A DNA stretch of 37,653 bases from Albugo candida (lineage: Eukaryota). Numbering within the stretch: position 1 is the first letter of the stretch; the number at the start of each line of letters is the position of its first letter. The position numbers and the translations under genes were made by a program. Shown in pieces: positions 4,367-30,700 of the stretch. The stretch spans positions 124,001 to 161,653 of the forward strand of contig JBDOQK010000068.1 of NCBI GenBank assembly GCA_040437565.1, written 5' to 3'. Under the pieces are notes generated by a model that saw nothing but the letters and a program-made list of their open reading frames with translations, made no database searches and had not been told where the DNA came from.

Positions 4367-4564
4367 TCAAAATTTCCAACATTTATCGCGGTATAAAACA
4401 AGGATCATTCGGCAGGTCGATGTCGAACTGTCATTCTCCAACATTGCACGACGAGCAGCACCATTCTTTTATATGTCCATGTGGCCGCTATCCATGATCG
4501 ATCATCACCAACTTGCATTTATGTGGCGACATGTTAGAGTGAATGCTTTCCACCGATCGATATC

Positions 4565-4619
4565 GGCTACTTATGTGATAAAGTGAAGGAGTTTTGGTTT
4601 TAGGTTTATCGAGGGACGC
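4565..4619 (+). promoter_or_regulatory. Conserved calmodulin upstream module, copy 1
   Basis: GGCTACTTATGTGATAA...TTTTGGTTTT(aggttt)ATC...GACGC; homologous to the blocks upstream of the other four CaM genes. Confidence 0.6.
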
Positions 4620-4676
4620 AGCAGGACTAGACGTTTGCACAGTTTGGATCCAAATAGCTTTTACACCCGCAGACGG

Positions 4677-4692
4677 TCACTTCTAAATTTGC
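4677..4692 (+). promoter_or_regulatory. Oomycete INR+FPR core promoter of CaM1
   Basis: TCACTTCTAAATTTGC matches YCAYTYY..MWTTTNC, ending 27 nt before the ATG. Confidence 0.7.
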
Positions 4693-4701
4693 ATCGAGTA
4701 A

Positions 4702-5169
<468 letters not shown>

Positions 5170-7706: not shown

Positions 7707-8635
7707 NNNNNNNNNNNNNNNNNNNNNNNNNNNNNNNNNNNNNNNNNNNNNNNNNNNNNNNNNNNNNNNNNNNNNNNNNNNNNNNNNNNNNNNNNNNNNN
7801 NNNNNNCTATTCTCCGCTCCACTCTACGAACTAAAATCTTCCACCACAAGTGTCTAAAGAGTAAAATCGCATCGCTAGTCGTCCTGCTACACGCTGCAAG
7901 CTGCACGAAAAGTCGCAGTCACATTGGACGATGAGAGGACCTGGAGATGCTGTCGTCAACCTGCGTCAGACGAGTCATGTGGCGGCGTCAGAAAGAGCTC
8001 AGCAATCGAAAAGAGTAGCATGTTGCTATAAGGAATGCGCAGTGCGTTTGCAGAAAGCGATATAGCCAACTTGAACGCTGATACTGCTGGACAACGCATT
8101 GTTGCTGCCGTCAGACAGAAGTCACACTTGCAACAGTAAGATGCCGGGACGATCCAAGCATTCGAGATAAGATGAGATGGCATTACACTGTCGATAGGCT
8201 TAATGAGAAGTTGGAGTACAAAGCTCAAAACGAGAACATCTGAAGAGGATTGGACTGTCTCTTCGTTGTCGATGTACAGACTGATATGACGCGGGGAAAT
8301 GAGCGTGGGCAACTGTGATGTGGACGACAATCGTCACTGAGAACGGAATGATGGCATCAGCGAGCTCTGTTGCGGTCGGAAATGCAAGCTTTTGCAATGA
8401 CCGTACAGCGGGGTCCAAAGCGAGAGTCCAGATAAAGAAAGAATATATCCTGATGATGTCTGATGCAACTCGGTGATTGGCATGTGCATTACCGAAGCGA
8501 TTTCGCACTTGACTGACAGCCCTGTAGCACCGTACCTACGACCCATACTTTGACGTAGCACCATTTGCATTAAATCCACTGTTTTCAGTGCCTAAAACAT
8601 TCATTGTATTTTATTTATTCAAATGCAATGCAATT

Positions 8636-8706
8636 GACTACATATGTAATAATCCGTAGAAGTTTTGGTTTTATCCAGCGACACGAAATCACTGAGATTT
8701 TGTATG
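8636..8706 (+). promoter_or_regulatory. Conserved calmodulin upstream module, copy 2
   Basis: GACTACATATGTAATAATC...TTTTGGTTTTATC (8663-8675)...GACAC...TTTGTATG. Confidence 0.65.
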
Positions 8707-8805
8707 CTGTGAATTCAAGGGACCAACTCCTTTACTGAATCGGTCTAAAATTTGACAAATGTTGATTTGTGCATTTCTGTCGCTCAATTCATATCTCAAT
8801 CAGCA

Positions 8806-9255
8806 ATGGCCGAGCAATTATCTGAAGAACAAATTGGCGAATTCAAAGAAGCGTTCTCGCTTTTTGACAAAGACGCCGATGGAATGATTACCACCAAAGA
8901 GCTTGGAACGGTGATGCGTTCCTTGGGACAAAATCCAACAGAAGCGGAACTACAGGACATGATTAACGAAGTAGATGCCGATGGTAATGGAACTATCGAT
9001 TTTCCAGAATTTCTAACGATTATGTCGCGCAAAATGAAAGACACCGATTCGGAAGAAGAGATTTATGAAGCATTTAAAGTTTTTGACAAAGACGAGAACG
9101 GGTTTATATCAGCGGCTGAGCTTCGCCACATTATGACAAATTTGGGGGAGAAACTGACGGACGAAGAGGTTGATGAAATGATCCGGGAAGCGGATATCAA
9201 TGGTGATGGACAAATCAACTATGAAGAATTCATCAAAAAGATGATGTCTAATTGA
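8806..9255 (+). CDS. CaM: Calmodulin paralogue 2 (divergent)
   Basis: 149 aa from ATG 8806. EF loops [49 protein letters not shown]-terminus FIKKMMSN. Confidence 0.97.
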
Positions 9256-9421
9256 GTTATAGATTGAGTCTAGTATCAAAAGTTGTCTGAATACAGCCAT
9301 AAGAATTCAATTCGTCGTGTAGTGTGATTCTGCTCGAGCTGACAATGTTCCATTGGTCGCCGGCATTTGAGTATAATTAAGTGACGCTTGACTGATTCTA
9401 AGAAACCTCATTGCCGTCAGT

Positions 9422-9841
9422 ATGGCGGCAAACATACCAAATGAAATCGACGAAGCGATCAAGCAATTGAAAAGTAAACCTGGCTTCGCAGCATATCTTA
9501 TCATGAGCAATGATGGAATTGTTGTGCGGTATGAAAACTTGGAATACCGTGAAGCTGTCATGTACGCATACCATGTCTTGGCTCTTTATGCACGAGCACG
9601 AAAACAAGTGGCAAAGATTATGGGTTCTACTCTGCAAGAAAGTGAAGAGATGGAATGGCTTCGTTTGAAAACAAAACTTCATGAGATGATCATTGCTCAG
9701 CATCTCCGTTACACCCTAGTTGTCCTGCAGACCTTTGAGGACACTGTCATTACTCCAGATGTAAGTGTGGCGCGTGGGGTGAGCGCGTTGGAAGAGCCTA
9801 AAGAAAAACAAGATGACAAAAGTGAGCCAAAATCCGCTTAA
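9422..9841 (+). CDS. Roadblock/LC7 dynein light chain family protein
   Basis: EIDEAIKQLKSKPG...YLIMSNDGIVVR...WLRLKTKLHEMIIA...YTLVVLQ fits the Roadblock/LC7 pattern; short charged C-terminal extension. Confidence 0.88.
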   Translation: MAANIPNEIDEAIKQLKSKPGFAAYLIMSNDGIVVRYENLEYREAVMYAYHVLALYARARKQVAKIMGSTLQESEEMEWLRLKTKLHEMIIAQHLRYTLVVLQTFEDTVITPDVSVARGVSALEEPKEKQDDKSEPKSA

Positions 9842-10230
9842 TCAAATTCCTCGCTAGGAGACTCAATCCTATTGGTATGCCCCGTTAAAGCACATCATAA
9901 TTGACATGTTAGCGTCATTCATCCGCGCCAAAAAACATAAGACATCAGCACGACTACCATGTATCTTGATCTCCAGTCCGTCAAGAAATGCGTCTTTATT
10001 CTGATCCTTGGTAACAAAAAAAGAAAATCTCTATGTATACATCGCAATTCAATTCTGTGTAAGCTTTTCATTTCAAGATGCGACCTGATTTTAAACCATG
10101 CAGTGTGAATGCAATCTTGCGATAGTCAGTGATGTAAGTTAAGCTTATAAAGCGCTCAAATGTCAGCTTTCATTGTCGGATGATAACTTGCGTCTCGTAA
10201 TGTTCATAATGCCCTTTGTGAACTTTGTTT

Positions 10231-11538
10231 TCACTGATGAGCTGTTGATTCGAGTAGTTGCTGCGTCAGGCGTGATACCTTCATCTCTAATTCATATTTC
10301 TCATGCATCGTTTGCTGGAGTAGTCGACGCAAGTTCTGATTTTCTATCTCGTACATCTCGATACTTTTAGTTGGCCGACTGACTTGCAAAAGACTGGGAT
10401 TGATATGCTCGTGATTCTCAGCAGTAGAATATGGCGCTGAAGTGGTATGAGTTGCTCGATTCAAAGTGTGAATAGGCTCTACCGTCGAATACATTCGTTG
10501 TGATGTTGCATTGGGCACATGAGAAGTGCTACGAACAGACGAGGTATTTCGTGCTAAATTGAATTTGACTGTCGGAAGTAGCGTCGGTAGTGCTGCGTCA
10601 CGCACAGTTTTGTGGTCGCTTGGTACCGATGAGGTTGTATTGTGATGCAAAGATGGCTGCTTTGTAGATGTGACAGTTTCCACTATAGTTTCCTTCGGTA
10701 AAAGTGATGCATCACGACTTGACTCAGTCGTGACGCAGGATGCCAGTTTTCGCCTTTTTTTCAAGGTGTTCGTATCAAAGATGGCTTCTTCATCCTTTTT
10801 TCCCACTGGAGTGCACTTCAGCGCCGTCCTATCCGCAACTGATCGAAGCGAGGCCAGCACGGCAGCGGAAACATCGTATGATGTGTCTAGTGCGGGGTTC
10901 TCTTGCGGTAGCACACAGCAATCCTCTTCAGTAGAGAAAAAACTCAATGGAACCGAATCAGTTTTCTTATTGAGCTGTTTCAAGGCTCCGCGTATTATTT
11001 CTCGCAAGGAATGCCCATATGCTCGCAATTTCGACGTCGGTAAGCCACAATTAGAAACATCGCCCGCTTTTATTGCCAGTTCGGAAATATTGGCAAGCTG
11101 ACTGTTCTCAAGTACCTCATGAGGCTCTACATTTTGTTCCTCAACGATATGTGCACGCCAGCTCTGTAAGCGCTTATAGACGTATTCCACGTGCTGTATC
11201 TCTTCCTTGCAATCGGTTCTCTTCTCTTTGCCTAATAGCGAATCTTGACTCATGCACTTGAGGTGTCGCAATCGTTCATTCAAGGTCTTTGTGTCCAGAT
11301 GTTCCCGCTCGCTTTCGGCTTTTTGAAAGAGAACATTCTCCAAACGTTGTGACAATGCTGGCAGTTTATTTCGAATTGTAGAGGGAGCCTTGGGCTTTCT
11401 ACTCTCCAACAGAGCTTGTATTTCAACGCGGATTCGCTCACGACAACGATTGAGATCTGGTCGCTGTCTCCAGTCTTCTTTCTGATTCGTAGGATACGCT
11501 GAGGATTGTGAGGTTGCTACGTTTTCTTTTTCAATCAT
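10231..11538 (-). CDS. Protein with N-terminal KIX-like (Med15-type) helical domain, HRDC-like domain, disordered region and C-terminal coiled coil
   Basis: DWR...RERIRVEI...LSQRLENVLFQKAESEREHLDTKTLNERL is KIX_2-like. VYKRLQSWRAHIVEEQNVEPHEVLENSQLANISE...GLPTSKLRAYGHSLREII is HRDC-like. First ATG at 11538. Confidence 0.7.
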   Translation of the reverse strand: MIEKENVATSQSSAYPTNQKEDWRQRPDLNRCRERIRVEIQALLESRKPKAPSTIRNKLPALSQRLENVLFQKAESEREHLDTKTLNERLRHLKCMSQDSLLGKEKRTDCKEEIQHVEYVYKRLQSWRAHIVEEQNVEPHEVLENSQLANISELAIKAGDVSNCGLPTSKLRAYGHSLREIIRGALKQLNKKTDSVPLSFFSTEEDCCVLPQENPALDTSYDVSAAVLASLRSVADRTALKCTPVGKKDEEAIFDTNTLKKRRKLASCVTTESSRDASLLPKETIVETVTSTKQPSLHHNTTSSVPSDHKTVRDAALPTLLPTVKFNLARNTSSVRSTSHVPNATSQRMYSTVEPIHTLNRATHTTSAPYSTAENHEHINPSLLQVSRPTKSIEMYEIENQNLRRLLQQTMHEKYELEMKVSRLTQQLLESTAHQ

Positions 11539-12265
11539 AAGTACAGCTATATGGTAACTGCAGAAAGGTATCAATCAGCGCAATTGCATTGCCGATAGCG
11601 ATTCACGTGCACGCAAACGCAAATCGAATTTGATTTGGAAATCAAGTGACGAATGTCGCGTCACTGAATTTGGTTATTTATGGCACCAACGAGACTTAAC
11701 TAAATCTAATATATTGCGATAAGCTTATGTTCGATCACTTGGCTCAGATTTTGTGCACAAAATAGTGTCTGTATTAACGTTAGAACGAAATTGGTATCAA
11801 AGGAGACGACTAACGGTGACTTTGCACGGTTCACTCCACCCAATCTGAATTTTGACGAATCGTGTTTTTCCGTATAGCAGACGATTTAATGTAGTAATGT
11901 GGGACCCGATTCTCCTGTTGGCAATGCCGATGCGCTGTTACTGCGCGTTACGTTCGCGGTCCAGCATAGCGGATGGCTCATCCAATTATCTTGATGCGAG
12001 AATACTCATCATTTGATTTTGCGGAAAGCAGGGAAATGATCTGGTCGAGAAATATAGAAAGCCTGTGTTGCTGATCACAGACTGGTGGACTGGGTGACAC
12101 GGTCGCTAATTTGACACGTTAATCGTTACGAAACTTATGACGCGGACATTTTTTATATTAAGACTAACATCCAGAAACGTTTCGTTCGATTGGAAGCTAG
12201 TACCCAAATAGAATTTCGCAAATTTCGACAGCACTGTCGCATTGGTTTCTGCGTGCAAAAAGATG

Positions 12266-12281
12266 CCATTTTTTAATTTAC
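12266..12281 (+). promoter_or_regulatory. INR+FPR core promoter
   Basis: CCATTTTTTAATTTAC just upstream of ATG 12289. Confidence 0.55.
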
Positions 12282-12288
12282 ACAAGAA

Positions 12289-13467
12289 ATGCTGAGCCGA
12301 TTTTGTTTGGGGTTCTTCTTCCTTGTACTGCACGCAAACGTGCCAAGCTCTGGTTCGATTTCCACGTTAAAAGCCAAATCGAAAAATAATGCCTATTTGA
12401 GAGGTTTGCCATCGATTGGGACAGCGATGAGACCCGAGAGTACGTTCCATCGCAATCTGAGTTATGGAGCAAATGATACAGTGGCAAATGGAAAAAAAGG
12501 TAACGCTGTCCTACCGGTGCAGAATAAGAGGTCGCTTCCTCCACCTGCAGTCACTCTCCCGGAAGAGCCATGTGTGGAGCTACCCCTTTTGGAAGACGAC
12601 TGCGAAGAGATCGTGTTGAAAGAAGAAGTGGAATGTGAAGAAATAGTGCTGAAAGCTGATCCTCTTGAAGGAGGTTCAATTGGTGGTGGAGCTTTACGCA
12701 CAGACGAATTGATTCTCAAGGATAAAGTGACAGATCAAAACATGAAAATTGTACCCAGCACAAACGTCACAAACGTCACAAACGTGTCCTCAGTTTCAAA
12801 CAACACGACAATTCAGAAAGTGGTAACGAATACGAGCATCACAAATCCCGCATCGGCTAAAAAAACACAGGAACCCGACTCAGCCACTGACNNNNNNNNN
12901 NNNNNNNNNNNNNNNNNNNNNNNNNNNNNNNNNNNNNNNNNNNNNNNNNNNNNNNNNNNNNNNNNNNNNNNNNNNNNNNNNNNNNNNNNNNGTTATGGAG
13001 CAAATGATACAGTGGCAAATGGAAAAAAAGGTAACGCTGTCCTACCGGTGCAGAATATGAGGTCGCTTCCTCCGCCTGCAGTCACTCTCCCGGAAGAGCC
13101 ATGCGTGGAGCTACCCCTTTTGGAAGACGACTGCGAAGAGATCGTGTTGAAAGAAGAAGTGGAATGTGAAGAAATCGTGCTGAAAGCTGATCCTCTTGAA
13201 GGAGGTTCAATTGGTGGTGAAACATTACGCACGGACGAATTGATTCTCAAGGATAAAGTGACAGATCAACAAATGAAAATTGTACCCAGCACAAACGTCA
13301 CAAACGTCACAAACCTGTCCTCAGTTTCAAACAACACGACAATTCAGAAAGTGGTGACGAATACGAGCATCACAAATCCCGCATCGGCTAAAAAAACACA
13401 GGAACCCGACTCAGCCACTGACAATGTTGACACATTCGCGTCCGATTTACTGAATTTTGGCAGCTGA
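12289..13467 (+). CDS. Small secreted acidic/Thr-Asn-rich protein (about 215 aa if the gap-spanning duplicate is collapsed)
   Basis: Signal peptide MLSRFCLGFFFLVLHANVPSSG, CEEIVLK repeats and many N-x-T/S sequons. 12461-12891 is repeated at 12992-13422 across a gap. Confidence 0.75.
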   Translation: MLSRFCLGFFFLVLHANVPSSGSISTLKAKSKNNAYLRGLPSIGTAMRPESTFHRNLSYGANDTVANGKKGNAVLPVQNKRSLPPPAVTLPEEPCVELPLLEDDCEEIVLKEEVECEEIVLKADPLEGGSIGGGALRTDELILKDKVTDQNMKIVPSTNVTNVTNVSSVSNNTTIQKVVTNTSITNPASAKKTQEPDSATDXXXXXXXXXXXXXXXXXXXXXXXXXXXXXXXXXXYGANDTVANGKKGNAVLPVQNMRSLPPPAVTLPEEPCVELPLLEDDCEEIVLKEEVECEEIVLKADPLEGGSIGGETLRTDELILKDKVTDQQMKIVPSTNVTNVTNLSSVSNNTTIQKVVTNTSITNPASAKKTQEPDSATDNVDTFASDLLNFGS

Positions 13468-13911
13468 ATAGCTCTCTAGCTACTAAACCATCTCCTATTC
13501 ATTCTCGTCTCAAGTCATTTATGTTATGTATACATAGTTTTTGCACAAAATAATACAATTAACTACGAGATCAAGTCACTGAACCTGCTTCCCTTCACAA
13601 CGTTGTATCGTTTGCCCGCATGAAATCCATATCTTTCACCTCAAGATCTACAAGATTCCTATCTTCGAATCACATAGGAACGCACACGCTCCTTTCAATA
13701 AAGCGTTACGTTGTAAGAGAAGAAAAAATTGCATCCCGAACCGCGTGGTACTCCAAGTCTTCTGATCTGCTCGGATTGGGTAATAAACACTTTTTGGTCA
13801 CTTTTGCTTGCTCCACGCATTCCATTCGGCTGATAGAACACACGTCCATGAATTTATATGTCATTCGATATTTGCGATGCCGCGTTTAGATTGACGATTG
13901 GTCAGCATATT

Positions 13912-13927
13912 TCACTAAACGATTTGC
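13912..13927 (+). promoter_or_regulatory. INR+FPR-like core promoter of the NPC1-like gene
   Basis: TCACTAAACGATTTGC ending 25 nt before ATG 13953. Confidence 0.45.
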
Positions 13928-13952
13928 TATCCTTCCGACACATTCAAACAGC

Positions 13953-16900
13953 ATGTGGCTGTTTCTAGCCGTCACAATCGCGATTTGTTTGCCGAGCTTT
14001 CGTGCCTGGATGGAAGTTCTCTTCGCTAAGCTCGCCGTCGTCTTTTTCAATTCCCTACTTCCCATATCGATCGCTGTCGCACTTATTTTCATTGCCGCAT
14101 TGTACCTCCACTTTGTCGTCTTCCATGCGCCCAAAATACTGCGAGTATCGAAACCAGTCATTTCGACACGTTTGTGGAAATACCTGCTTCTGATTTCAGC
14201 ATGTCCGGGATTGTATGCGTGGACGCTACAATCCCCACGCGGCTTCATTACCTCCTTACAACGCAAGCTGACGAGCAACAGCACCATTCCTCTCGATTTG
14301 GCTCACCTTCGTCAGTATCTCACAATGTGCCCCTACTCCAAAAAAAAAGAATGCATCGAGAATCCATGGCGATTTCCCGAACTTGGACAATATACCAAAG
14401 GACCTGGCATATGTGTGGGCTTGGACGCGGTTCCTGTCAAATTTACCAGTTCTGTCGCTGCTCTTCCAACGAGATATACGCCCATTAAAGCTAAGGATGC
14501 GATTTTACGTGGATATCAAAACAAGTTTTCTCAGTGGAGCGTGAGTAATCGTGAGCAATTTGAAGTGGATTGTCCATTGCTTTATAACCAGACGATCGCT
14601 AAAGGACAAGATTATTTGTGCTGCACCGAGTCGCAATACAAAGGGCTTCAAAGCCAAGTTCGCATGATTCCAGGGCTCTGCACTTCGTGCAAGGTGAATC
14701 TTCGTAATGTATGGTGTCAATATACGTGCAATCCAAGCAACTCGGAATTCATAGAGCCGAAATATATCCGACTCTCGTCGCCTGAAGACGACGCAAAACC
14801 TGTGGTGCCTTTTTTCGAACAAGTCACGTATTATGCTGGAGCGGACTGGATTCGTGATCTGTACGATTACTGCAAAAAAGATGCTTCATTGGTATTCCTA
14901 TGCAATCCAAACGAAGGATGCACAGATGGCTTCGGCTTGCTCAAGTTTATGGGTCAATACAAATTTGGCTCGATCGGCTCACCCGGTCAGATTGATTTCA
15001 AGACTATGGAACAAATGAAAGAACAGCAGGTCAAAGATGATATCTGTCCTTGCGTTGGAAAGAAGGATAACTGCACAGCGCCGTTGAATCATCGATTGCA
15101 GTCGTGTGCAAATGTATGCGGATCCTTGTGTGCTGTACAACCCAACGCTGTACGAAGATATCACGAGGCATGCTACAATCCAAACGTGACATTTGCATCA
15201 TTGCCTGCCCGAGACTCATTACCAGGAGTTGATGCTCCACCAGAGAATGCCAAATGGGCTCCCATTTTGAATATGCTCCGTAAGAATCTGGAAGGAAAGA
15301 TGTTTGGAGGCCTGAATCTTTTTTTGATCATATTTGGGATTATTGCTGGAGTCTGCTGTATCGCGGTGTACTTGTACGTCATGATATTTCGTCAAAAACC
15401 ACAACCAAGTGTGGATGGAAATTTCACAAGATGGAGCATTTATTCGAATGCTGCAGTGGATGAGAAGGTACTGAGTGCGACCGACCATTTTCTCATGCGA
15501 TGGATGAAGATCTGGGGCTTGCTTGTCAGCACAAGACCATGGATCGTGATCTTCGTTATGCTTGCTGTCTATACGATTTGTGCGATTGGATTATATCGCG
15601 TTCAAGTCGAGACAGATCCTGTCAAGCTTTGGGTATCCGAAAGTAATCAAGCATACAAGGAACGTGACCGATACGGAAAGATGTTTATGCCTTTTTATCG
15701 AACAGAGCAAGTGCTCATGGTGCCCAAAGATGGAGGTATCATTGGCCGTGAAGAATATATCAAGGAATCTATACGCATACAGGAAGTAGTCGCCTCTATC
15801 ACATCCACTCCACCTCCAAATTCTGCAAAATCAAGAGTTTTTCTCAAAGACATTTGCTGGAAAGCTACTGGAACGGATTGCACAGTCCAATCGATCACAC
15901 AATACTTTCAGAACAGCATGCTGCATTTTCGATTTTATGAAAAGCATGGATTAGTGATGCAGCATTTCACCAATTGCCTAAACTCACCAGCGAATGATGA
16001 CGTTCGTGTTTGCAACAAACTCCAGTCTAGTGCAGCTGCATTGAATGAGTCTATTCCTCGTTCGATGCAGTATTGTCCTTGTCTGTCATCCTTTGGAGCG
16101 CCAATGAATTTGTACAATGTTTATTTGGGTGGGTATCCTTTGGCCGCCGAAACCAATTCAACGCTTTACCTCGAAAGTGAAGCTTTTGTGTCAACAACAT
16201 TGGTCTATAATTACCAAAATCCTTCTCAAAATGAGCCCGCAATAAGATGGGAACGAAGTTTTATCGAACGGATGAAACTCGAAGCCGCTTCCAACTCTTT
16301 ATTCAATATTTATTTCATGGCTGAGATTTCTGTCCAGGACGAAATTTCAAAAGAGTCGACCGGAGACGCACTTCCTGCTGTGTTGAGCTACCTGCTGATG
16401 ATCGTGTACGTGTGCTTGGGAATCAATCGATGGAATTTAAATCGTCAGTTTTTCATCGTTTCAAAGATCACAGTTGCATTTTTGGGTATTTCTTGCATCA
16501 TTTTGGCCGTCACAGCAACAATGGGGTTTTTCTCATGGTGTGGAGTGAAATTACAATTGGTGATAATCGAAGTGGTTCCATTCCTATCGCTCGCTATTGG
16601 TGTTGACAACATCTTCCTGTTGGTACACGCTGTCGATGAGCAGCAGCATGTTTTGCGCCAAGGAGAGCCACGTCTGTTTTTCGATATGGTTCACGAAGAG
16701 GATATCACCCGAAGGAATCAAAAGGTTGTTGGAATGGCGACCCGGCTCGTGTCGGAAGGCTTGCAGACAATTGGTCCAAGTATTGCTGTAGCGTCAATGG
16801 CAGAAGCTACTGCTTTTGCACTCGGTTGTATCTCCAGCATGCCGGCAGTTCGCTATTTTGCTGCCTTCTCCTCATTGGCTGTGTTGGTCAATTTCTTCTT

Positions 16901-18770
16901 CCAAATGACATTTCTCGTCGCTGTGATCACTCTGGATAAACGGCGTGAGCTTAGCGGAACGTACGATCTTCTCTGCTGTATTTTTCGCGATCGTGGACGT
17001 CGTTTTCTACCTCAGATTTTCTACCTGAGAAGCAACGAGACCGATGGATCCAGTATGCTTGAGGATGAGATTTATCCGTATGATTCCGATCTGAAAACGC
17101 CGCAAGACGAAGTCGTGGTGGCAGCAGGCGCATTATCAGGCACATCGAGCGAACTTCAGCACCAGAAAATGCACTTTTTCGACCGCTGTATTGAGCTATA
17201 CGCTTGTTTTCTTCTGCATCGAGTCGTCAAATTGGTTGTGCTTGTTTTATTTATGCTATGGACATTATTTTCCATCGCTAGTATGGAGAAGATCAAGCTA
17301 GGGCTACCACAGGCCGAGTCGATGCCATCCAAGTCGTACATGACCAAATACTTTGACGCAATTAAAGTCTATCTTCAAACCGGACCGCCCATTTTTTTTG
17401 TGGTGGAAGGAGGATACAAACGCAATCCATCAGCTTTTGATTTCAGCAAACCGTCCATTCAAGCCAAATTTTGCCGTTCCAGAGACTTTTGTAGCGAGTA
17501 TTCGATCCCCAAGATTATCGATGCCTTAGCGAATGAAGCTGATAAAAGCATTACGCATATCAGTCCCGGTACGACGTATTCGTGGGAGGACGACTTCTGG
17601 GGCTTTGTTAGCTCCGACACGGATTGTTGTCGGCTGAATGCTAGAGGAGAATATATGCCCATTCAAGCCGATAATGCAGCTTACAAACTTGAACGATCAC
17701 GAGCTCGCACATGCCTTCCGTCTTCGAGTCACGTACCACCGATTCCTAAGGAGAGCTTCATGTCACTTTTCAGTATATTCGCGACCGCGAGTGCAGGGAG
17801 TGCATGCTCCTACGGTGGAGGGTCAATTTATCGAGGTCAGTTCAGCTTTGATCAGCATCCCGTACCAGTCTTGAACGGCTCTCACGCACCTATTATTGTC
17901 AACAAAACAAGCTATGGTGACGCTCTTACAGCAGTGAGCTATATGGTCACTTCTACAGCGAATCCAACTCAGCAATCGTACATCGACTCGTACAAGCAAG
18001 CTCGAGCGATCGCGGACTGGATCAGCAAAGAAACCGGCATTGATGTATGGGCATACGCCAACACATTTGTTTATTTCGACCAGTACTTGACTATTGAGCG
18101 AGATGCGCTCTTGTTTGTGGGGCTCGCACTTGGTGCCATTTTCATTCTTTATATGGTTTATTTCGGCTTTCGTCCGGCCTACCCGCTGATTATCACTGGA
18201 ATTGCACTCAATATGGTGATTCAAGTGATGGGAATGATGCCAGCTCTCGACATTATGCTGAATGGACTATCACTCGTGAATCTGATCATTGCCGCTGGTA
18301 TCAGTGTCGAATTCTCGGCGCACTTTGTGCGAGTGTTTGCCAAAATGAAGCCTACGATCCAATCGGGAGATGAACGAGCCAAAGCGGCATTTCGTCGCGT
18401 GCTTGTTTCCATCTTATTTGGCATTACGATCACCAAAATTATTGGTTTGAGTGCATTGATGCTGGCGGACTCGCGTATATTCCAAAAGTATTACTTTCGG
18501 ATGTATATGGCAGTGGTGGTCTCTGGTGTGTTGAATGGCACCGTGCTTCTACCCGTCCTATTGAGCATTGGAGCCGATATCAAACAACTGTTCGCTCACA
18601 AGGATGGAAAAAAGGCCGATCATAAGACCAATATGTACAGCTCAAGACCCTCTATGAATGCAGTCGGTACTTCGTCAAGTCGACTTGCTGCATTGAGCAG
18701 TACTTCCTACTTGGCTGAGTCCAGACTTGAATTTGATCCTGAAGCCTCCATGTCAAAATCTACCAAGTGA
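13953..18770 (+). CDS. NPC1: Niemann-Pick C1-like sterol transporter (RND/Patched family)
   Basis: 1605 aa. Cys-rich NPC1 N-terminal domain (LCCTESQ, CKVNLRNVWCQYTCNP), VETDPVKLW, PFYRTEQV, sterol-sensing region (VVPFLSLAIGVDNIFLL, GPSI), YFDQY, GISVEFSAH, FQKYYFRMY. Confidence 0.95.
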   Translation: MWLFLAVTIAICLPSFRAWMEVLFAKLAVVFFNSLLPISIAVALIFIAALYLHFVVFHAPKILRVSKPVISTRLWKYLLLISACPGLYAWTLQSPRGFITSLQRKLTSNSTIPLDLAHLRQYLTMCPYSKKKECIENPWRFPELGQYTKGPGICVGLDAVPVKFTSSVAALPTRYTPIKAKDAILRGYQNKFSQWSVSNREQFEVDCPLLYNQTIAKGQDYLCCTESQYKGLQSQVRMIPGLCTSCKVNLRNVWCQYTCNPSNSEFIEPKYIRLSSPEDDAKPVVPFFEQVTYYAGADWIRDLYDYCKKDASLVFLCNPNEGCTDGFGLLKFMGQYKFGSIGSPGQIDFKTMEQMKEQQVKDDICPCVGKKDNCTAPLNHRLQSCANVCGSLCAVQPNAVRRYHEACYNPNVTFASLPARDSLPGVDAPPENAKWAPILNMLRKNLEGKMFGGLNLFLIIFGIIAGVCCIAVYLYVMIFRQKPQPSVDGNFTRWSIYSNAAVDEKVLSATDHFLMRWMKIWGLLVSTRPWIVIFVMLAVYTICAIGLYRVQVETDPVKLWVSESNQAYKERDRYGKMFMPFYRTEQVLMVPKDGGIIGREEYIKESIRIQEVVASITSTPPPNSAKSRVFLKDICWKATGTDCTVQSITQYFQNSMLHFRFYEKHGLVMQHFTNCLNSPANDDVRVCNKLQSSAAALNESIPRSMQYCPCLSSFGAPMNLYNVYLGGYPLAAETNSTLYLESEAFVSTTLVYNYQNPSQNEPAIRWERSFIERMKLEAASNSLFNIYFMAEISVQDEISKESTGDALPAVLSYLLMIVYVCLGINRWNLNRQFFIVSKITVAFLGISCIILAVTATMGFFSWCGVKLQLVIIEVVPFLSLAIGVDNIFLLVHAVDEQQHVLRQGEPRLFFDMVHEEDITRRNQKVVGMATRLVSEGLQTIGPSIAVASMAEATAFALGCISSMPAVRYFAAFSSLAVLVNFFFQMTFLVAVITLDKRRELSGTYDLLCCIFRDRGRRFLPQIFYLRSNETDGSSMLEDEIYPYDSDLKTPQDEVVVAAGALSGTSSELQHQKMHFFDRCIELYACFLLHRVVKLVVLVLFMLWTLFSIASMEKIKLGLPQAESMPSKSYMTKYFDAIKVYLQTGPPIFFVVEGGYKRNPSAFDFSKPSIQAKFCRSRDFCSEYSIPKIIDALANEADKSITHISPGTTYSWEDDFWGFVSSDTDCCRLNARGEYMPIQADNAAYKLERSRARTCLPSSSHVPPIPKESFMSLFSIFATASAGSACSYGGGSIYRGQFSFDQHPVPVLNGSHAPIIVNKTSYGDALTAVSYMVTSTANPTQQSYIDSYKQARAIADWISKETGIDVWAYANTFVYFDQYLTIERDALLFVGLALGAIFILYMVYFGFRPAYPLIITGIALNMVIQVMGMMPALDIMLNGLSLVNLIIAAGISVEFSAHFVRVFAKMKPTIQSGDERAKAAFRRVLVSILFGITITKIIGLSALMLADSRIFQKYYFRMYMAVVVSGVLNGTVLLPVLLSIGADIKQLFAHKDGKKADHKTNMYSSRPSMNAVGTSSSRLAALSSTSYLAESRLEFDPEASMSKSTK

Positions 18771-19560
18771 AGACCAAGATGGTGGTAGCTCGTGAATGCC
18801 GATAAGGATTTCAGAATATCATGTAAATGCTTCAATGGCTACTTCTCTTTCTCTCCTCAACGCAAACTGTATCGTTATATATGAATTCCGGTCGGGATAT
18901 CAGCTTTGACGTCAGTTTCTTGTCAACGTAGTGATGTCATTTGTTGAACACACTGAGCGCGTTAACTGGAAAGATCCGATACAAACTTTGTGGCTTCTAA
19001 TTGACTTGATACCCTCCCTGCTATGAGGAGATTTAGACGCAGCAATGTGATATGAATGAGTGCACAGTCCTGTGCAAGATACGAGCCCCATCACATTCCT
19101 CTCTGACTGTGTGACTTCGTACAGGAGACATAATAAGAAACTGGTTTGAAACGCGATTCTGAGCAGGGTTTCACTTGTGAATAGGAATTGAAGAGTATTT
19201 CTGCCATTGCATCAAATTATACGGATGGTGTTCAGCTGAAACATCTGATGACCTCACTCTTCTACGTGAGTCAATCCAACAAGAGGATGTTAACTAGCGC
19301 ACATGCGTGAAAACACTTTTTGGTCCTAAGGTTTATGGTCGCACAATGCCATTTTTAATGAAACGATTGGGGTGCTGTAGCGCGTATTACCCATGTTTTG
19401 CTGTCTCAACTGAACCAGATTAATCAAAGTAAAGTATACAGTATCATGAAGCGTGTTCTCAATCAGTGGGGCTTCCACTTTGTTACTAACAGTTGCAAAG
19501 CGTGCGTCTTCTGTCCATTTCGGAAAGCTTTTCTGCAAAAGTAAATGATCATAGCACACA

Positions 19561-19631
19561 ACCTATATACGTAATAAACTGAAACAGTATTGGTTTTATC
19601 GAAAGACATAAAAACACTCAGAATTTGTATG
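19561..19631 (+). promoter_or_regulatory. Conserved calmodulin upstream module, copy 3
   Basis: ACCTATATACGTAATAAAC...TATTGGTTTTATC (19588-19600)...GACAT...TTTGTATG. Confidence 0.6.
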
Positions 19632-19739
19632 ATGAGAATAGAAGGAGCCAGACACTTAACCGAATGTTCTTAGTGTTTCCGTAGCCGATGATTTGCAGAT
19701 TTGCATCGAGTATTTCATATCTCAATATCTCAATCAGCG

Positions 19740-20189
19740 ATGGCCGAGCAATTATCCGAAGAGCAGATTGGTGAATTCAAGGAAGCGTTTTCACTATTTG
19801 ACAAAGACGGCGATGGAATGATTACGACGAAAGAGCTTGGCACGGTGATGCGTTCGTTAGGACAAAATCCTACGGAAGCGGAACTGCAAGACATGATCAA
19901 CGAAGTAGATGCTGATGGCAATGGAACGATTGATTTTCCAGAATTCTTGACGATGATGGCTCGCAAAATGAAAGACACTGATTCGGAAGAAGAGATCTTA
20001 GAAGCATTCCGAGTATTCGATAAAGACGGAAACGGCGTTATATCTGCAACAGAATTGCGTCACATTATGACAAATTTGGGAGAGAAATTGACGGATGAAG
20101 AGGTCGATGAGATGATAATTGACGCTGACATCAATGGTGATGGACAAATCAACTATGAAGAATTTGTAAAAAAGTTAATGGCTAATTAA
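19740..20189 (+). CDS. CaM: Calmodulin paralogue 3 (divergent)
   Basis: 149 aa from ATG 19740. EF1 [14 protein letters not shown]3 [25 protein letters not shown]-terminus FVKKLMAN. Confidence 0.97.
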
Positions 20190-21300
20190 GGCGTGATTTC
20201 AATTCAATATAAAATTTGGTAAATACAGCCAAAATTCTCATTTCAAATTAATTGTGCGATGCTATCCCTACTAGATCCGACATTCTCATTGTAGCGAACA
20301 ATTTAGTGCCTCAAGGTGACTTTGACTAATGTGTAAAAGCTTTGTAGCAATTACGTTGGCCGCAAGCATACTGATGAAAGGTGGACGCACTCACTATTTT
20401 GCTGTCTATTTTAGAAAACAACACGATATGAAATGAGCATTACTCAGTATCTCAAGATGATAGGTTGCGTGACCGCATCTATCCGAGGACTGCACCCTAT
20501 TGGAGAAGGCTTGGAGTATCCCATGACCTGTGCTTGATTTATGTGGTGATGAGATGACGATCGGTGTCATATTGCATTTGATCAGAGGAGGGAAGAGCAG
20601 TGCCAAGACTCGTATCATGTTGTACACCCAGCTCCATATCACGAATCATAAGGATGTCAGTGCTAGAAAAAGTTGGTGTATTTGGTCATTTTTTACANNN
20701 NNNNNNNNNNNNNNNNNNNNNNNNNNNNNNNNNNNNNNNNNNNNNNNNNNNNNNNNNNNNNNNNNNNNNNNNNNNNNNNNNNNNNNNNNNNNNNNNNTTT
20801 ACAGACCAATGCGCCCGGACATTGAACATGCCAACAGCGCGTTTTTCCTTTCGAATGTGTAGATGGAGCCCGAAAGCATTTAACAATTTCCCCATTGTTG
20901 TGGGATGCATTTTAGAAGCTATAACGTTGTCGTAGTGATTAAAAACAACTTTTGTAAGACTGCATGGTATCGAACAACTAAGCACAATAATCAAAGGATG
21001 AAACCATTTACAATCTGTCCACGCTAGAAGAATGAAGAGTGAACACTCTTGCAGGACCATCAAAGAACGCAGAATTCGGGATTCATCTCTACTTGCAGTC
21101 ATTTTGAGCCGCATCGGAGGTATAGCTCCGCCTTCCGACGCAANNNNNNNNNNNNNNNNNNNNNNNNNNNNNNNNNNNNNNNNNNNNNNNNNNNNNNNNN
21201 NNNNNNNNNNNNNNNNNNNNNNNNNNNNNNNNNNNNNNNNNNNCCGCCTTCCGACGCAATCACAGATGAGACGCCTACACGTAAATAGTTCTATTATGTA

Positions 21301-21370
21301 GACTACATATGCAATAATCTGAATAAGTTTTGGTTTTATCCAAAGACGCAAAAACACTGAAAATTTGTAT
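21301..21370 (+). promoter_or_regulatory. Conserved calmodulin upstream module, copy 4
   Basis: GACTACATATGCAATAATC...TTTTGGTTTTATC (21328-21340)...GACGC...TTTGTAT. Confidence 0.65.
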
Positions 21371-21464
21371 AATGCAAATCCAACCAACTCCTTTACTGAA
21401 TGTCTTGATCTTCACACAAGATAATTTGTAGATTTACGTCGCACAATACATATCTCAATCCGCG

Positions 21465-21914
21465 ATGGCCGAGCAATTATCCGAAGAGCAGATTTGTGAA
21501 TTTAAGGAAGCCTTTTCATTGTTCGACAAAGACGGCGATGGAATGATCACTACGAAAGAGCTTGGTACGGTGATGCGTTCATTAGGACAAAATCCAACCG
21601 AAGCGGAGCTTCACGAGATGATCAATGAAGTAGACGCCGATGGTAACGGAACGATTGATTTCCCGGAATTTTTGACTATGATGTCGCGTAAAATGAAGGA
21701 CACTGATTCGGAAGAAGAGATCATAGAAGCATTTAGAGTATTTGACAATGACCAGAACGGATTTATATCTGCAGCAGAATTGCGTCATATTATGACGAAT
21801 TTGGGAGAAAAATTAACGGATGAAGAGGTGGATGAGATGATTCGAGAAGCTGATCTCGATAATGATGGACAAATCAACTATCAAGAATTCATCAAGAAAA
21901 TGATGGCTAATTAA
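21465..21914 (+). CDS. CaM: Calmodulin paralogue 4 (divergent)
   Basis: 149 aa. [15 protein letters not shown]3 [14 protein letters not shown]4 [13 protein letters not shown]-terminus FIKKMMAN. Confidence 0.97.
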
Positions 21915-22926
21915 GCTGTAGGTTCAGTCTAGTATAAATGATACGTGAATACAGCGAGGTTATCCAAGTTTTTTCCTACATTCATCCCGCTTGAGCTGAC
22001 GCTCTTTATTGCTGCGTATAGTTGACCATTTTCAATTTCAAAAGAGTGCGGCTAATCCGCGAAAAGCTTGTACAATGTCTGCAACTGAGAAGCAAACCTA
22101 AATATACAGCCTATCGTAGAGATCGCTTGCCAGAATCTGCAATACAGCGAGCTTTTCATCGCGAATACAATGCCGTAGCTGTCAACTTGACGCGTAGTAG
22201 CTCCGTTCAACTCGGGCTGCAATGCAGATGTATGTAAATATCGGCTTATTTCCAAATATACTTTGAACTTGTAGGATGAGTCAATTCATTTGTTCACAGA
22301 AAAGTCCAAGCTTTCAAAAATGGTGTTGAGACCTCGCAATCAGATTCCCCAAATATTATCAATATGTTTCCAGGATGCTAAAAGGAGCCTCGTGGACACC
22401 ACATTACGCAAATAAGTGACAGTTTGAATCAAAGTGAATGCCAGCCTGAGAGATTATGTCACAAGCTTAGCCCCCTATCTACTTTGAATGGATGGAAAAG
22501 ATTTATCAAGTGAGACATGTGTATAGCACTACCAAATTGGCGGCTGCATCGCATCGAGGATGATGATCTGGTCATAAATGGGAGATTGTTCTCCTCAGTT
22601 GCGAATAACCTGAAAAGTTCGAGCACATAGGTATTCCGTATGAGAAACAAGACGCAGGGCGACAAATGAGTTACACTGGCAAGCTATCCTTTAGCAATGG
22701 ACTGCAGATCGCTAAGTTTGGCCTCCTACTACTATGATTTAGTAGAATGCAAATCGGCACGAGACCTCTCGCTTCGTCACCCATAAGTTCATGGAGAAGA
22801 GTAGTACGACAAAGCCTATGCACTCACCACCCTCAACAATCAATTGTTATTACATTATATCTTATTGTTGTGAATCGAAAACGTCTCAAACCATTTTATT
22901 GCAAGCCAACGACTGAGAGTGTCGAG

Positions 22927-23345
22927 ATGCACGCTATGGAAAATCAAACCTTTCAGCCATTACCGCACCAATTTACGCTTGGAATTAGATTATAGTCGCG
23001 ATGCTCTACTTGACACACAAGAGGTTGTACTCACCAAAGTATCGGAGATAGAAACTGAAACTGGACGTTTGCAAGACAAAGTTTGCTGTTGTCCAGTGAC
23101 GCGAACCACCCTCGACACGCTTAGCTTATCCTAGCACCGATAATGCAAAATCACATCCTCGACGCGAGGAAAAGAAATACTTATACTCTGGTATCTCTTC
23201 TTTGACTTTTTGAATATGAACGATTAGATCGTCGCCTCATATCAAATACCGTTACGATACCGTTCGGTAATTCGCGCTGTCAAGCGCATCAGAAAACTCG
23301 TTACAATCAACGCATACGATTCAGGACGACTATCTCATAGAATCA
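22927..23345 (+). pseudogene. Snapin/BLOC-1 subunit-like coiled-coil sequence, spliced or degenerate
   Basis: LDYSRDALLDTQEVVLTKVSEIETETGRLQD resembles the Snapin core LDSHVHAVRESQVELREQIDNLATELCRINE as I recall it. Downstream AVKRIRKLVTINA lies after AG-ending intron-like segments. I could not build a clean model. Confidence 0.3.
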
Positions 23346-23644
23346 CGGCCTACGAAATAAAGTATCGCTTCAACAGATTCGACTCACTCTATCACCTTCA
23401 ACTCTCCGGACTCATATGGTGCGATTATCCCCGTTCGTATCAAGGAATATCACGATGTTCTTGTACATCTACACTACAAGAAGAGAATGGTAAGATACTG
23501 ACCAGCGCTGTAATGATCACATACGAGTTACTTAGTTGGGAACAAATGTCGGGGACCGATATGAATCGCAACTTTAGCAAGATAACATTACACAAATGAT
23601 ATGAAAATCCTCGCTGTATTTTACGCAATCTTTTCTACTATAGC

Positions 23645-24094
23645 TTAATTTGACATCATCATCTTTACAAATTCTTCATAATTGATTTTTCCATCACCAT
23701 CAAGATCAGCTTCACGAATCATCTCATCCACCTCCTCATCCGTCAATTTCTCTCCCAAATTTGTCATAATGTGACGTAGTTCTGCAGGAGTTATAAAGCC
23801 GTCAAGATTTTTGTCAAAAACTTGAAATGCATTCCGGATCTCTTCTTCCGCATCGGTGTCCTTCATTTTGCGCGACATCATCGTCAAGAATTCCGGAAAA
23901 TCAATGGTTCCATTTCCATCGGCGTCTACTTCGTTGATCATGTCCTGTAGTTCCGCTTCCGTAGGATTTTGTCCTAACGAACGCATCACCGTTCCAAGCT
24001 CTTTCGTAGTAATCGTTCCATCGCCATCTTTGTCAAATAATGAAAAGGCTTCCTTAAATTCACAAATCTGCTCTTCGGATAATTGCTCGGCCAT
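23645..24094 (-). CDS. CaM: Calmodulin paralogue 5 (divergent, inverted)
   Basis: 149 aa from ATG 24094. [22 protein letters not shown]3 [14 protein letters not shown]4 [12 protein letters not shown]. Confidence 0.97.
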
Positions 24095-24188
24095 CACTGA
24101 TTGAGATTTAAATGAATTGCACGACGCAAATTTAGGAATTACCGTCAATTAAATTTTAAAAGAATTAAGTAAAGTAGCAGGTTGCTAC

Positions 24189-24260
24189 CATACAAATGGT
24201 AAGTTCTTTTGTGTCCCTGGATAAAACCAAAAACACCTTTACATTATTGCATATGTAGCC
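24189..24260 (-). promoter_or_regulatory. Conserved calmodulin upstream module, copy 5
   Basis: Minus strand GGCTACATATGCAATAATG...TTTTGGTTTTATC (24232-24220)...GACAC...TTTGTATG. Confidence 0.65.
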
Positions 24261-27763: not shown

Positions 27764-30700
27764 ATGACCATGCGAGACTTGATGCTTTTAGAAACAATCG
27801 ATGAACACGCCATTATAGAAGCGCTACTAAAACGATATCAGAAATCCAACATTTACACCTTTCTAGGACCAGTCTTAATTGCGATCAATCCGTACACAAA
27901 ACTCTGCATAAATGCTACAGAATACCCCGACTTATCTCCAAAGCTGTCACTATACGATCCTGGACTCATCGATCGATTTCGCAATAAGGAACTCCATCTG
28001 TCTCCTCCCCATCCATTCGCGATAGCTGAGGCTGCCTACTCGGATCTCATGCGCTTTCGACGCGACCAATCTCTCATAATCACTGGCGAGAGCGGAAGTG
28101 GGAAGACGGAAACGTCCAAACACGTGCTACAATACATAACTCATGCGAGCGAGCGCTCACATACACAGCCAAGTGCACATACCTCTGCAACACGAAACAA
28201 TCAAAGTCTACAGCTAAGGTCTAATGTAGGCGATAAAATTTGGAAATGTAATCAGATTTTCGAAGCTTTCGGGAACGCTCAAACAATCAGGAACCAGAAT
28301 AGTTCTCGATTCGGCAAGCACTCTGTCCTTCAATTCGATCCTCGAGGTCGTATCACGGGCGCCTACATAGAAAATTACTTGCTAGAAAAATGTCGGGTAT
28401 TCCAACAAGCGTATGGAGAGCGTAATTTTCACATTTTTTATCACTTGTTAGACGGTGTAACCCCAGAAGAAAGAAATCTATGGCGGATTTCGTCTTCGAC
28501 GTCATTTCGCTGTCTTTCACACGATCAGAATTATTGTCATAACACCAGCAGCAAGGACGATAAGGCTGCCTTGCAGCAGGTACGACAGGCAATGACGGAG
28601 CTACAAATCACTTTGGAAGAGCAGCAAACGATCTTTCAATTATTAGCTGCTATTCTATGGATTGGAAATATCTGTTTCGAAGACATCATCGACACTTGTC
28701 AAAATAGTTGTGCTGTCTTATCATCCGACATCTCTCGAGAAGCTCTCGAAAATGCTGCCTACTTGTTGGGACTTGCACCTCATAGTTTAGAGAAAATGCT
28801 TACGTATCGGCTATTGACAATTCAATCAGAAGAACAAGAATGGAAGCTGAGTGCAAGCAAAGCTACCAAAGTATGTCACTCACTCGCGCGATCGCTATAC
28901 GAGAAGATCTTCCACTGGATTGTGGGACGAGTAAACCAGACTTTAGGTCGTCAGACCTCTGCTTCAGCCTGTATCGGTATCCTCGACATTTACGGCTTTG
29001 AAATTTTTCAAGTCAATGGATTCGAGCAGCTTTGTATCAACTACGTCAACGAAAAGCTTCAACAGCTCTTCATAGTGCAGACATTGCGGGCCGAGCAAGC
29101 CGAGTATGTATCGGAAGGCCTTTCGTGGGATCTCATCGCATTCACCGATAATAAGGGCGTGTGTGAGCTACTAGAAGACCAAAGCAAACATGGGATTTTC
29201 TCAGTACTAGATGAGCAATGCGCAGTCACACAGTACTCCGAAAAGGAATTCATCCACCGTCTCAACACATTTCATGCCGAAAATCCGCATTATATCAAAG
29301 CTCGGGTTCGAAATCTGTCGTTCGGGATTCAGCACTACGCTGGCGATGTTGAATACGACGTATCACTATTTGCCGAATCCAACACCGATACATTCTACTC
29401 GCATTTGCTGTCCTGCATGCACGAGTGCACTGTTCCTTTGGTGAAAACCCTGTTTCAGGTCTCCGAAGTACACGATTTCAAGCGGCCTCCAACCACATCA
29501 CAACAATTCCGGTCGCAAGTAACGATGCTTCTGTCCAATTTACGCGATTGCCATCCAAATTATATTCGCTGTATCAAACCAAATGACGCAAAAATGACAT
29601 TGATAAAGAAAAATCGATTGAAAGAGCAGATACGATACTTGGGGCTGGTTGAGAATCTTCGACTTGGACGGAAAGGATACTGCTACCGGGAAACTTACAC
29701 GTTATTTTTCCAGCGGTACAGGATTCTTTCGAACGTCACATGGCCATCTTTCAATTTCCACTCTGCGGTACGAAACTCGCGTGATGCCCGGGATCTGGGC
29801 CAGACTTCCACCTTACTCTAACACTATGCTTCTCTGTAGAGGCAAGCTACCGTTGCGCTTTTATCGAGCCAAGAAGTGGTCTGGAAGAAGGGAACTACCA
29901 GTGTCAAGTTTGAAGAAGATACTCCCACACTTGGAAGCTACTCTTTGGGTCGAAATAAAATCTTCATTCGTACTCCGGAAGCTTTAGGTGCATTGGAGCA
30001 ACTTCGAGAGGCCAAACTACACGATATAGCTGCTATTTTACAGCAAAGCTGGCGGAGATATAAGGTATGCATACCCATAAACGTTTCTATCGACGTGGGT
30101 ACAAACTTTTCCATGGTAGAAACGAATTTTATTGGGACACTTTTTGGACGCGTATGAGGAGCTGAAGGTGGCGTATCGAGCTGTGCTCACCAATTGTATG
30201 CATCGCAGAATGCGACGTATGGATGCGAATGATCGATGCGAGGTAGAGCGCGTGTATACTGCGTGGAAACTGGTCAGTCAAAAGCTTCTCGGGCCTTTCA
30301 ACGGACACAATTCGCGACTGGCGAAAGAAGAGATGGAAAATGGCGTTGTGTACGCACAGAGCCATGTCCGTGCAAAACAAGGCCGGAAGAGGTTTTTGAG
30401 GCTTCGACAAGCTCAGATCACACTGAGCAAGCACGTACGAGGCCGACAAGTACGTCATAACTTGCCGCCGGATCTAAGGCAAGCTTGTGTCGCTATACGA
30501 CTTGGTATCCGTACGGAAATGGAACGATTTCTCGGGCAAAAAAAACGGCGACGGGATAGCTTGGATCGTGAATATGAAGGCGATTATCTGGGTCTCACCC
30601 AAATGCCCGCCTATCAGACATTGTTGCGTAAAAGGAGCGGGCTGTCACATGTCGTTATCTTTGCATCTGATGTTGTCAAAGTCAATTATCGCTTCCAACT

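Follow-up and report, generated by a model that had tools for sequence, protein, structure and literature searches.

The stretch of 37,653 nucleotides from the oomycete Albugo candida that was analysed in this study (positions 124,001 to 161,653 of contig JBDOQK010000068.1, assembly GCA_040437565.1, here termed the window) contains five genes encoding calmodulin (CaM). In the products of three of them, CaM2, CaM3 and CaM4, a lysine replaces Met144, a residue of the hydrophobic pocket by which the C-lobe of the protein engages its targets. On balance, these K144 copies are probably Ca2+-sensing CaM isoforms with an altered C-lobe pocket and a shifted or narrowed set of targets. As judged from their sequences and those of their relatives, they are a real, conserved and unusual family within the known category of divergent CaM isoforms.

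Calmodulin genes with a substituted pocket residue

Each of the five genes is an uninterrupted frame of 149 codons, whose intronless coding sequence (CDS) contains neither premature stop nor frameshift. Residue numbers in this study are those of the mature protein, and differences are counted relative to the canonical oomycete CaM, for which the CaM part of the proteins P0029 of Globisporangium splendens, P0026 of Peronospora matthiolae and P0032 of Peronosclerospora sorghi served as reference.

CaM1, 4720-5169, plus strand: Met144 and Lys148 kept, Leu96; 7 differences, the closest of the five to canonical oomycete CaM
CaM2, 8806-9255, plus strand: Lys144 and Met26; 13 differences, among them G23A, M71I, L86Y, G96E, D131N and K148N
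CaM3, 19740-20189, plus strand: Lys144 and Met26; 14 differences, among them M145L, F99V, A103T, R126I, E127D and D131N
CaM4, 21465-21914, plus strand: Lys144 and Met26; 18 differences, among them Q49H, D50E, K94N, G96Q, G132N and E139Q
CaM5, 24094-23645, minus strand: Met144 kept; 16 differences, among them the EF3 loop with DKNLDG, S81A, L86R and E87N

The number of copies refers to the window, where a six-frame scan for EF-hand loops detected four per gene and 20 in total, and where a tblastn search with CaM1 recovered the same five genes and no sixth copy, fragment or pseudogene. With 7 differences and an intact Met144, CaM1, which is located 3.6 kb from CaM2, represents a more canonical isoform within this genome.

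The five proteins qualify as calmodulins in length, fold, ligands and identity. In each of them Pfam EF-hand_1 was assigned to four stretches and EF-hand_7 to two, and calmodulins of the PDB align over residues 1-148 with E-values of about 1e-82 (CaM2 end to end). The standard ligands (Asp at loop position 1, Asp, Asn or Ser at positions 3 and 5, Gly at position 6 and Glu at position 12) are found in 20 of 20 loops, in line with a preliminary description of the window, which had stated that Gly6 and Glu12 are kept throughout. Its statement that neither the EF2 loop nor Lys115 varies among the copies is likewise correct. The substitutions D131N and D95N/N97D are Asp/Asn exchanges at ligand positions. 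In total, 7-18 of 148 positions differ between the Albugo copies and canonical oomycete CaM, equivalent to an identity of 88-95%, and the best identities in the database, 90-92%, are to oomycete CaMs. Their length of 149 amino acids, the number of EF-hands (four), the sequence of the EF2 loop, Lys115 and the linker are those of the canonical protein, from which they are distinguished by D2E, T5S and A10G/C in all copies and by Lys144 and Met26 in three. The full canonical set of Gly96, Met144 and Lys148 is present in none of the five.

The replacement of Met144 in CaM2, CaM3 and CaM4, which end on FIKKMMSN, FVKKLMAN and FIKKMMAN, respectively, had been noticed in the preliminary description and is borne out by the codons of the three genes, as is the T26M substitution common to them.

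CaM2, plus strand: codon 144, AAG, 9238-9240; codon 26, 8884-8886
CaM3, plus strand: codon 144, AAG, 20172-20174; codon 26, 19818-19820
CaM4, plus strand: codon 144, AAA, 21897-21899; codon 26, 21543-21545

The use of AAG, AAG and AAA indicates that synonymous change has happened while the lysine was kept. In CaM1 and CaM5, codon 144 is ATG. Equally evident from the sequences are other features that had been described before, namely M145L in CaM3, D131N in CaM2 and CaM3, and in CaM5 Pro102 and an EF3 loop with swapped ligands (DKNLDG, D95N/N97D).

The assignment of F92, L105, M124 and M144 to the pocket of the C-lobe agrees with the figure legend in the accessible part of PMC8059062, which also names F19, L32, M51 and M71 as the equivalent quartet of the N-lobe. 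Both quartets are intact in CaM1 and CaM5. That of the C-lobe is broken in CaM2, CaM3 and CaM4 by M144K, and in CaM2 the quartet of the N-lobe is broken as well by M71I, a change of the counterpart of Met144 that the preliminary description had overlooked. Since the K144 copies do not preserve the conserved pocket quartet, they are better called divergent CaM isoforms.

The same description had singled out residue 96 of EF3 as hypervariable. Its states in CaM1 to CaM5 (L/E/G/Q/L) were given correctly, but its exceptional position was not upheld, as residue 86 likewise shows four states (L/Y/L/I/R). Residue 96 is identical within two pairs of orthologues introduced below (Gln in that of CaM4, Leu in that of CaM5) and is thus specific to the paralogue rather than freely variable. 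It is located at position 4 of the EF-loop, which does not contribute a ligand, and the leucine found there in CaM1 (codon 5008-5010), in CaM5 and in the CaM5 orthologue of Albugo laibachii has no equivalent in 1596 loops of 427 CaM-like proteins from outside Albugo, where this position is Gly in 1414 cases, Gln in 127 and Leu in 0. The comparators with Gln96, the state of CaM4, include plant CaMs, as judged by source names. The EF3 loop of CaM5, in which positions 3 and 5 are occupied by Asn and Asp, resembles a loop of the troponin C site III type (D-K-N-x-D-G); unlike troponin C, CaM5 is otherwise a calmodulin and shows the mentioned Leu at position 4 that is absent in all comparator loops.

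Descent, selection and rarity of the Lys144 copies

Three relatives from A. laibachii Nc14, labelled in the database as 'calmodulin, putative', were recovered by cluster look-up and by a profile search, the latter of which surfaced two paralogues. P0174 is the orthologue of CaM4 and keeps, at 6 differences in total, Cys10, Met26, His49/Glu50, Asn94, Gln96, Lys144, Ala147 and Asn148. P0288 is the orthologue of CaM5, identical in 148 of 149 positions including the DKNLDG loop, Thr101, Pro102, Arg86, Asn87 and Ala81, and P0308 is another K144 copy with the C-terminus FVRKLMAN, which also contains Ala23, Met26 and Asn131. The exchanges D2E, T5S and A10G/C, by which the eight Albugo proteins are set apart from canonical oomycete CaM, are common to all of them. 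In a maximum likelihood tree of 14 rows, these eight group together with a support of 89/90, and the five K144 rows form one clade (84/91); the two pairs of orthologues were recovered with a support of 94/89 (CaM4 and P0174) and 100/99 (CaM5 and P0288). Only two substitutions, T26M and M144K, are found in all five rows of the K144 clade and are at the same time absent from CaM1, CaM5, P0288 and the canonical row. Since the K144 rows form one clade, the two substitutions are most simply explained by one ancestral change each, which would have arisen once before the split of A. candida and A. laibachii and would have been kept since.

A comparison of substitution rates has shown that the five copies are old and under purifying selection, which, together with the conservation of the K144 state in two Albugo species, speaks against decaying duplicates. 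Their coding sequences are 83.0-87.7% identical in pairwise comparisons, with values of 0.58-1.99 for dS, of 0.038-0.075 for dN and of 0.022-0.129 for dN/dS (method of Nei-Gojobori, five copies), and the K144 copies among themselves show a dS of 0.86-1.74 at a dN/dS of 0.030-0.068. The divergence is unevenly distributed, with 7 of 31 variable columns located in the 80 positions of the N-lobe and linker (residues 1-80) and 24 in the 68 positions of residues 81-148 (Fisher p = 9e-5). The copies can be told apart by their residues 86-103 and 126-148 and by their 3' untranslated regions. This is also reflected in the dN/dS of the C-lobe (0.056-0.189), which is several-fold above that of the N-lobe (0.006-0.043) and still strongly constrained. 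Gene conversion as cause of the identity in the N-lobe was ruled out by the high pS of this region (0.30-0.70), which in combination with its very low dN/dS points to selection instead.

The several-fold faster evolution of the C-lobe could be taken as a sign that the K144 copies are redundant duplicates under relaxed constraint or in decay, or else the product of an assembly in which alleles were collapsed or misjoined, and the latter would be in accordance with eleven 100-N gaps in the scaffold and with a 531-bp duplication (12543-13075) that is missing from the contigs of other sequencing runs. These observations are outweighed by the integrity of all open reading frames (ORFs), by a dN/dS that does not exceed 0.13 at a dS of 0.6-2.0 and by the conservation of K144, Q96, the DKNLDG loop and P102 in A. 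laibachii. Contigs of an independent DNA run (X7) add to these arguments, of which one (8333-9225) spans the upstream flank and CaM2 except for its last 30 bases, and three others (14559-19766, 20135-21127 and 21767-23765) join the ends of CaM3, CaM4 and CaM5 to their own flanks, and the exact proteins CaM2, CaM3, CaM4 and CaM5 are recorded on a second, longer contig. In light of the selection and cross-species data, either decay or artefact is thus very unlikely.

The 378 CaM-like proteins retrieved for comparison contain 422 EF4-type loops. At the position equivalent to residue 144, lysine is present in 5 of these loops, exclusively from Albugo and in a pattern that is not due to chance, whereas the other loops contain Met (252), Val (113), Leu (23), Ile (21) or other residues (8). 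The lists of homologues obtained with CaM2, either whole or with its residues 100-149, consist mostly of CaMs in tandem or fused form and of 90%-cluster representatives, with K144 relatives hidden in generic CaM clusters, and are uninformative on rarity, and a search of 50% representatives, whose top 150 entries are mostly canonical CaMs with extensions, served only to enlarge the comparison set. A strict DNA pattern, N-Y-[EQ]-E-F-[IV]-K-K-x-M, gave 0 matches in a metagenome contig collection. Unlike the Albugo copies, where alone Lys144 was seen, the retrieved plant CaMs have a hydrophobic Val or Ile at this position. Contamination by the host plant was considered as a source of the genes and ruled out by these residues and by neighbouring genes that are Albugo-like.

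Transcription, flanking sequences and gene neighbourhood

Four sequencing runs were compared with the window as assembled contigs, whereby parts without cover and differences in depth were not counted as evidence. Of 230 entries for letters that differ from the window, the 40 that were listed fall outside the CaM genes. Run X7 is DNA-like, with a depth that stays at 3-31 in each of the 30 bins and without GT..AG joints. Run X1 is RNA-like, as its depth varies between 0 and 1375 across bins and its contigs contain a GT..AG joint at 20217/20274 and a loose end with poly(A) at 8417, and run X6 is RNA-like with a GT..AG joint at 7294/7364. Contigs of X6 match CaM2 (8926-9194), CaM3 (19740-20014), CaM4 (21491-21785) and CaM5 (23963-24068) with 0 differences, and the X1 contig that is spliced at 20217/20274 extends 88 letters upstream of the joint and spans codon 144 of CaM3. 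For CaM1 the signal in X6 is ambiguous, with one contig matching to 5167 and then diverging from the window. The expression of the K144 copies was checked in this way, with contigs from RNA-like runs, whose type is guessed, found on CaM2, CaM3 and CaM4, and the case for their transcription is fair but not firm.

The five copies have also preserved parts of their non-coding surroundings, which include the following features.

8646-8805, plus strand: upstream region of CaM2 with sequence blocks common to all five copies
4560-4719: equivalent stretch upstream of CaM1
19580-19739: equivalent stretch upstream of CaM3
21305-21464: equivalent stretch upstream of CaM4
24095-24254, minus strand: equivalent stretch upstream of CaM5
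20219-20274, plus strand: candidate 56-nt GT..AG intron in the 3' untranslated region (3'UTR) of CaM3, spliced in a contig of X1 and unspliced in the DNA run X7

In all five copies the upstream blocks include TTTTGGTTTTATCCA... and, directly before the ATG, ATTTGCGTCG..CAATTCATATCTCAATCAGCG, and further common sequence is located about 30 nt past the stop codon. The persistence of these non-coding blocks despite saturated synonymous sites suggests that they hold signals for regulation or processing that have been conserved. The presence in each copy of a donor-like GT(G/A)AATACAG about 30 nt after the stop, together with an aligned AG, suggests a 3'UTR intron common to all five paralogues.

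Several contigs deviate from the assembly. In contigs of X5 and X7, position 21318 (upstream of CaM4) is followed, after 8 letters, by position 8662 (upstream of CaM2), which would reflect either that other isolates are arranged differently or that the contigs were joined via the common upstream blocks. Another contig of X7 matches CaM2 to 9002 and then continues with a sequence encoding PEFLCLMAKK, which likely belongs to another EF-hand gene of the same or of another organism in the run. For the ORF at 12289-13467, Pfam gave no match. A 100-N gap in this ORF is surrounded by a direct duplication of 531 bp, and precisely this length is left out in contigs of X1 and X7 (12825/13357 and 12543/13075). 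The duplication is probably an artefact of the assembly or a polymorphism.

Between and around the CaM genes, Pfam domains identify a BioD-BioA-like fusion, a Roadblock/LC7 protein, an HRDC protein, an NPC1-like sterol transporter, a DTW protein, a class-I myosin and a pyruvate carboxylase, and for two of the neighbouring proteins the 90%-identity cluster also contains named proteins of Albugo candida. The BioD-BioA-like gene (1438-3801), which encodes a fusion of a dethiobiotin synthase and a class-III aminotransferase, and the gene of the biotin-dependent pyruvate carboxylase (31228-34941, minus strand) together indicate that genes for biotin synthesis have been kept in this obligate biotroph.

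Target recognition by the Lys144 isoforms

Few eukaryotic proteins are as conserved as calmodulin, whose methionine-lined pockets are the textbook basis of its breadth in target recognition. The preliminary description had proposed that Ca2+ binding is kept in the Albugo copies and that their specificity has diverged, which would turn some of them into selective activators or competitive antagonists. The first part of this proposal holds at the level of sequence, considering the conserved ligands, the changes in the C-lobe, the role of M144 in the pocket and the observed selection, from which we infer that the K144 copies have retained Ca2+ binding and altered their choice of targets, whereas a role as activator or antagonist stays a suggestion.

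In the scenario that we favour, a single ancestral CaM gene would have multiplied within Albugo by duplication into at least five linked copies, all intronless and with promoter-proximal and 3'UTR blocks in common. One daughter lineage would have gained T26M and M144K before the split of A. candida and A. laibachii and subsequently duplicated again to give rise to CaM2, CaM3 and CaM4. All copies would have remained four-site Ca2+ sensors. In the K144 clade, a long cationic side chain takes the place of one member of the C-lobe pocket quartet (F92, L105, M124 and M144), and CaM2 additionally alters the N-lobe counterpart (M71I) and CaM3 the adjacent M145 to Leu. Ca2+ would still open the lobes, and the pocket would obtain a cationic rim, which is predicted to disfavour the bulky hydrophobic anchor and the flanking basic residues of classical target helices. 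The targets that the K144 isoforms bind or activate would consequently differ from those of CaM1 or CaM5 and would probably be fewer. The relevance of this region for target interactions is illustrated in the complex of CaM with a peptide of RyR2, where M144 and M145 are described as persistent interface residues in the available portion of PMC8825638.

A number of observations caution against this interpretation. The long aliphatic stem of lysine can in part replace methionine, with its amine placed at the rim of the pocket, and the functional shift could thus be small. The support of the K144 clade is moderate (84/91), and the tree does not settle the branching inside of it. The set underlying the rarity of Lys144 is biased, as its proteins were retrieved with the present queries and the search for homologues has used representatives of 90% clusters, and Lys144 should thus be regarded as rare, which does not imply that it is unique; in this respect, a relaxed version of the metagenome pattern matched at least 119 loci, although among the matches listed none is in the context of an EF-hand. 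Finally, the RNA type of the sequencing runs is a guess ('RNA?'), with none of them recorded as RNA, and the depth of contigs cannot rank genes.

Plants and protists often contain divergent CaM isoforms and CaM-like proteins; in Phytophthora there is a single calmodulin gene. The Albugo copies, at 88-95% identity, are much closer to canonical CaM than soybean SCaM-4, whose identity is about 78%. The effect of residue 144 on target activation in soybean, which the preliminary description had invoked as a precedent, was not found in the literature searched; a paper in J Biol Chem from 1999 is reported to concern this residue in soybean CaM isoforms. The nearest functional precedent for the K144 copies is the pair of SCaM-1 and SCaM-4, as described in the accessible text of PMC6593290: in both organisms several paralogues in one genome differ mostly outside of the Ca2+ ligands, but in soybean the isoforms were found to activate or inhibit specific targets, whereas altered targets of the Albugo copies are deduced from sequence. 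A second precedent is provided by laboratory CaM with oxidized or substituted methionines at positions 144 and 145, in which the same pocket position is made polar. Unlike the oxidized protein, the change in Albugo is genetically fixed, cationic, found across species and placed in dedicated paralogues that exist beside Met144 copies. The literature found on Albugo and calmodulin and on oomycete CaM families contained, in its accessible parts, nothing on these genes.

Both precedents also bear on the question whether the K144 isoforms activate their targets at all. As competitive antagonists or Ca2+ buffers, they would dock on common targets without activating them and in this way dampen signalling by CaM1 and CaM5. 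Such a role would be in line with an interface that is conserved except for one altered residue of the pocket, with the activation of NAD kinase by SCaM-1 and its inhibition by SCaM-4 (PMC6593290, accessible text), and with the finding that the polar side chains generated by oxidation of M144 and M145 block the activation of the plasma-membrane Ca2+-ATPase (PMC8830543, in the part available). It is nevertheless unlikely, as three separately kept K144 paralogues with their own conserved changes in the C-lobe fit distinct positive roles better.

A further possibility concerns IQ-motif proteins such as myosins, of which the K144 copies could be dedicated light chains that are constitutively bound in a largely Ca2+-independent manner, with the C-lobe tuning the interaction of the apo-form with the IQ motif. 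The lobe that has diverged is indeed the C-lobe, and myosin essential light chains contain a polar or basic residue at the position equivalent to 144. The window also harbours a class-I myosin gene with motor head and TH1 tail (27764-31106, split by at least one intron), located about 3.7 kb from CaM5, whose neck contains an IQ-like motif (IAAILQQSWRRYK) and whose product might be a client of CaM. However, a single myosin gene may be linked to the CaM genes by coincidence, and the strict conservation of all Ca2+ ligands would be needless in a Ca2+-independent subunit, which makes a role as light chain appear slightly more doubtful still than that of an antagonist.

The loss of methionine might itself be the relevant property. 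Albugo is a genus of obligate plant biotrophs, and the removal of the oxidation-prone Met144, together with Met145 in CaM3 and Met71 in CaM2, could render the C-lobe insensitive to methionine sulfoxidation, which could help a biotroph inside a tissue that mounts an oxidative burst. The oxidation of Met144 and Met145 was reported to alter the structure of the C-terminus, to block activation of the Ca2+-ATPase and to disrupt binding to CaMKII (PMC8830543, accessible part), and the substitutions in Albugo fall exactly on these methionines. Yet 7 of 9 canonical methionines are left in CaM2 and CaM3 and 8 of 9 in CaM4, and Leu, Ile or Val would delete the redox site without introducing a charge, so that the choice of Lys needs a further reason. 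As an explanation of the K144 copies, redox adaptation thus appears distinctly improbable, if less so than their decay. A broader proposal, in which Albugo would lack any fully canonical calmodulin and conduct its Ca2+ signalling via specialised isoforms, with the K144/M26 proteins as a charge-modified class insensitive to oxidation at residue 144 that was selected under the oxidative burst of the host and acquired its own rewired targets, is improbable to a slightly lesser degree and ranks behind the assignment as light chains.

We thus favour isoforms with a modified C-lobe pocket as the probable identity of the K144 copies. The existence of a natural and selectively maintained family, in which Met144 is replaced by Lys beside copies that have kept the methionine, offers a ready-made comparison of the part that this pocket residue plays in the choice of targets, and it marks Ca2+ signalling as a pathway that has diversified in white-rust oomycetes.

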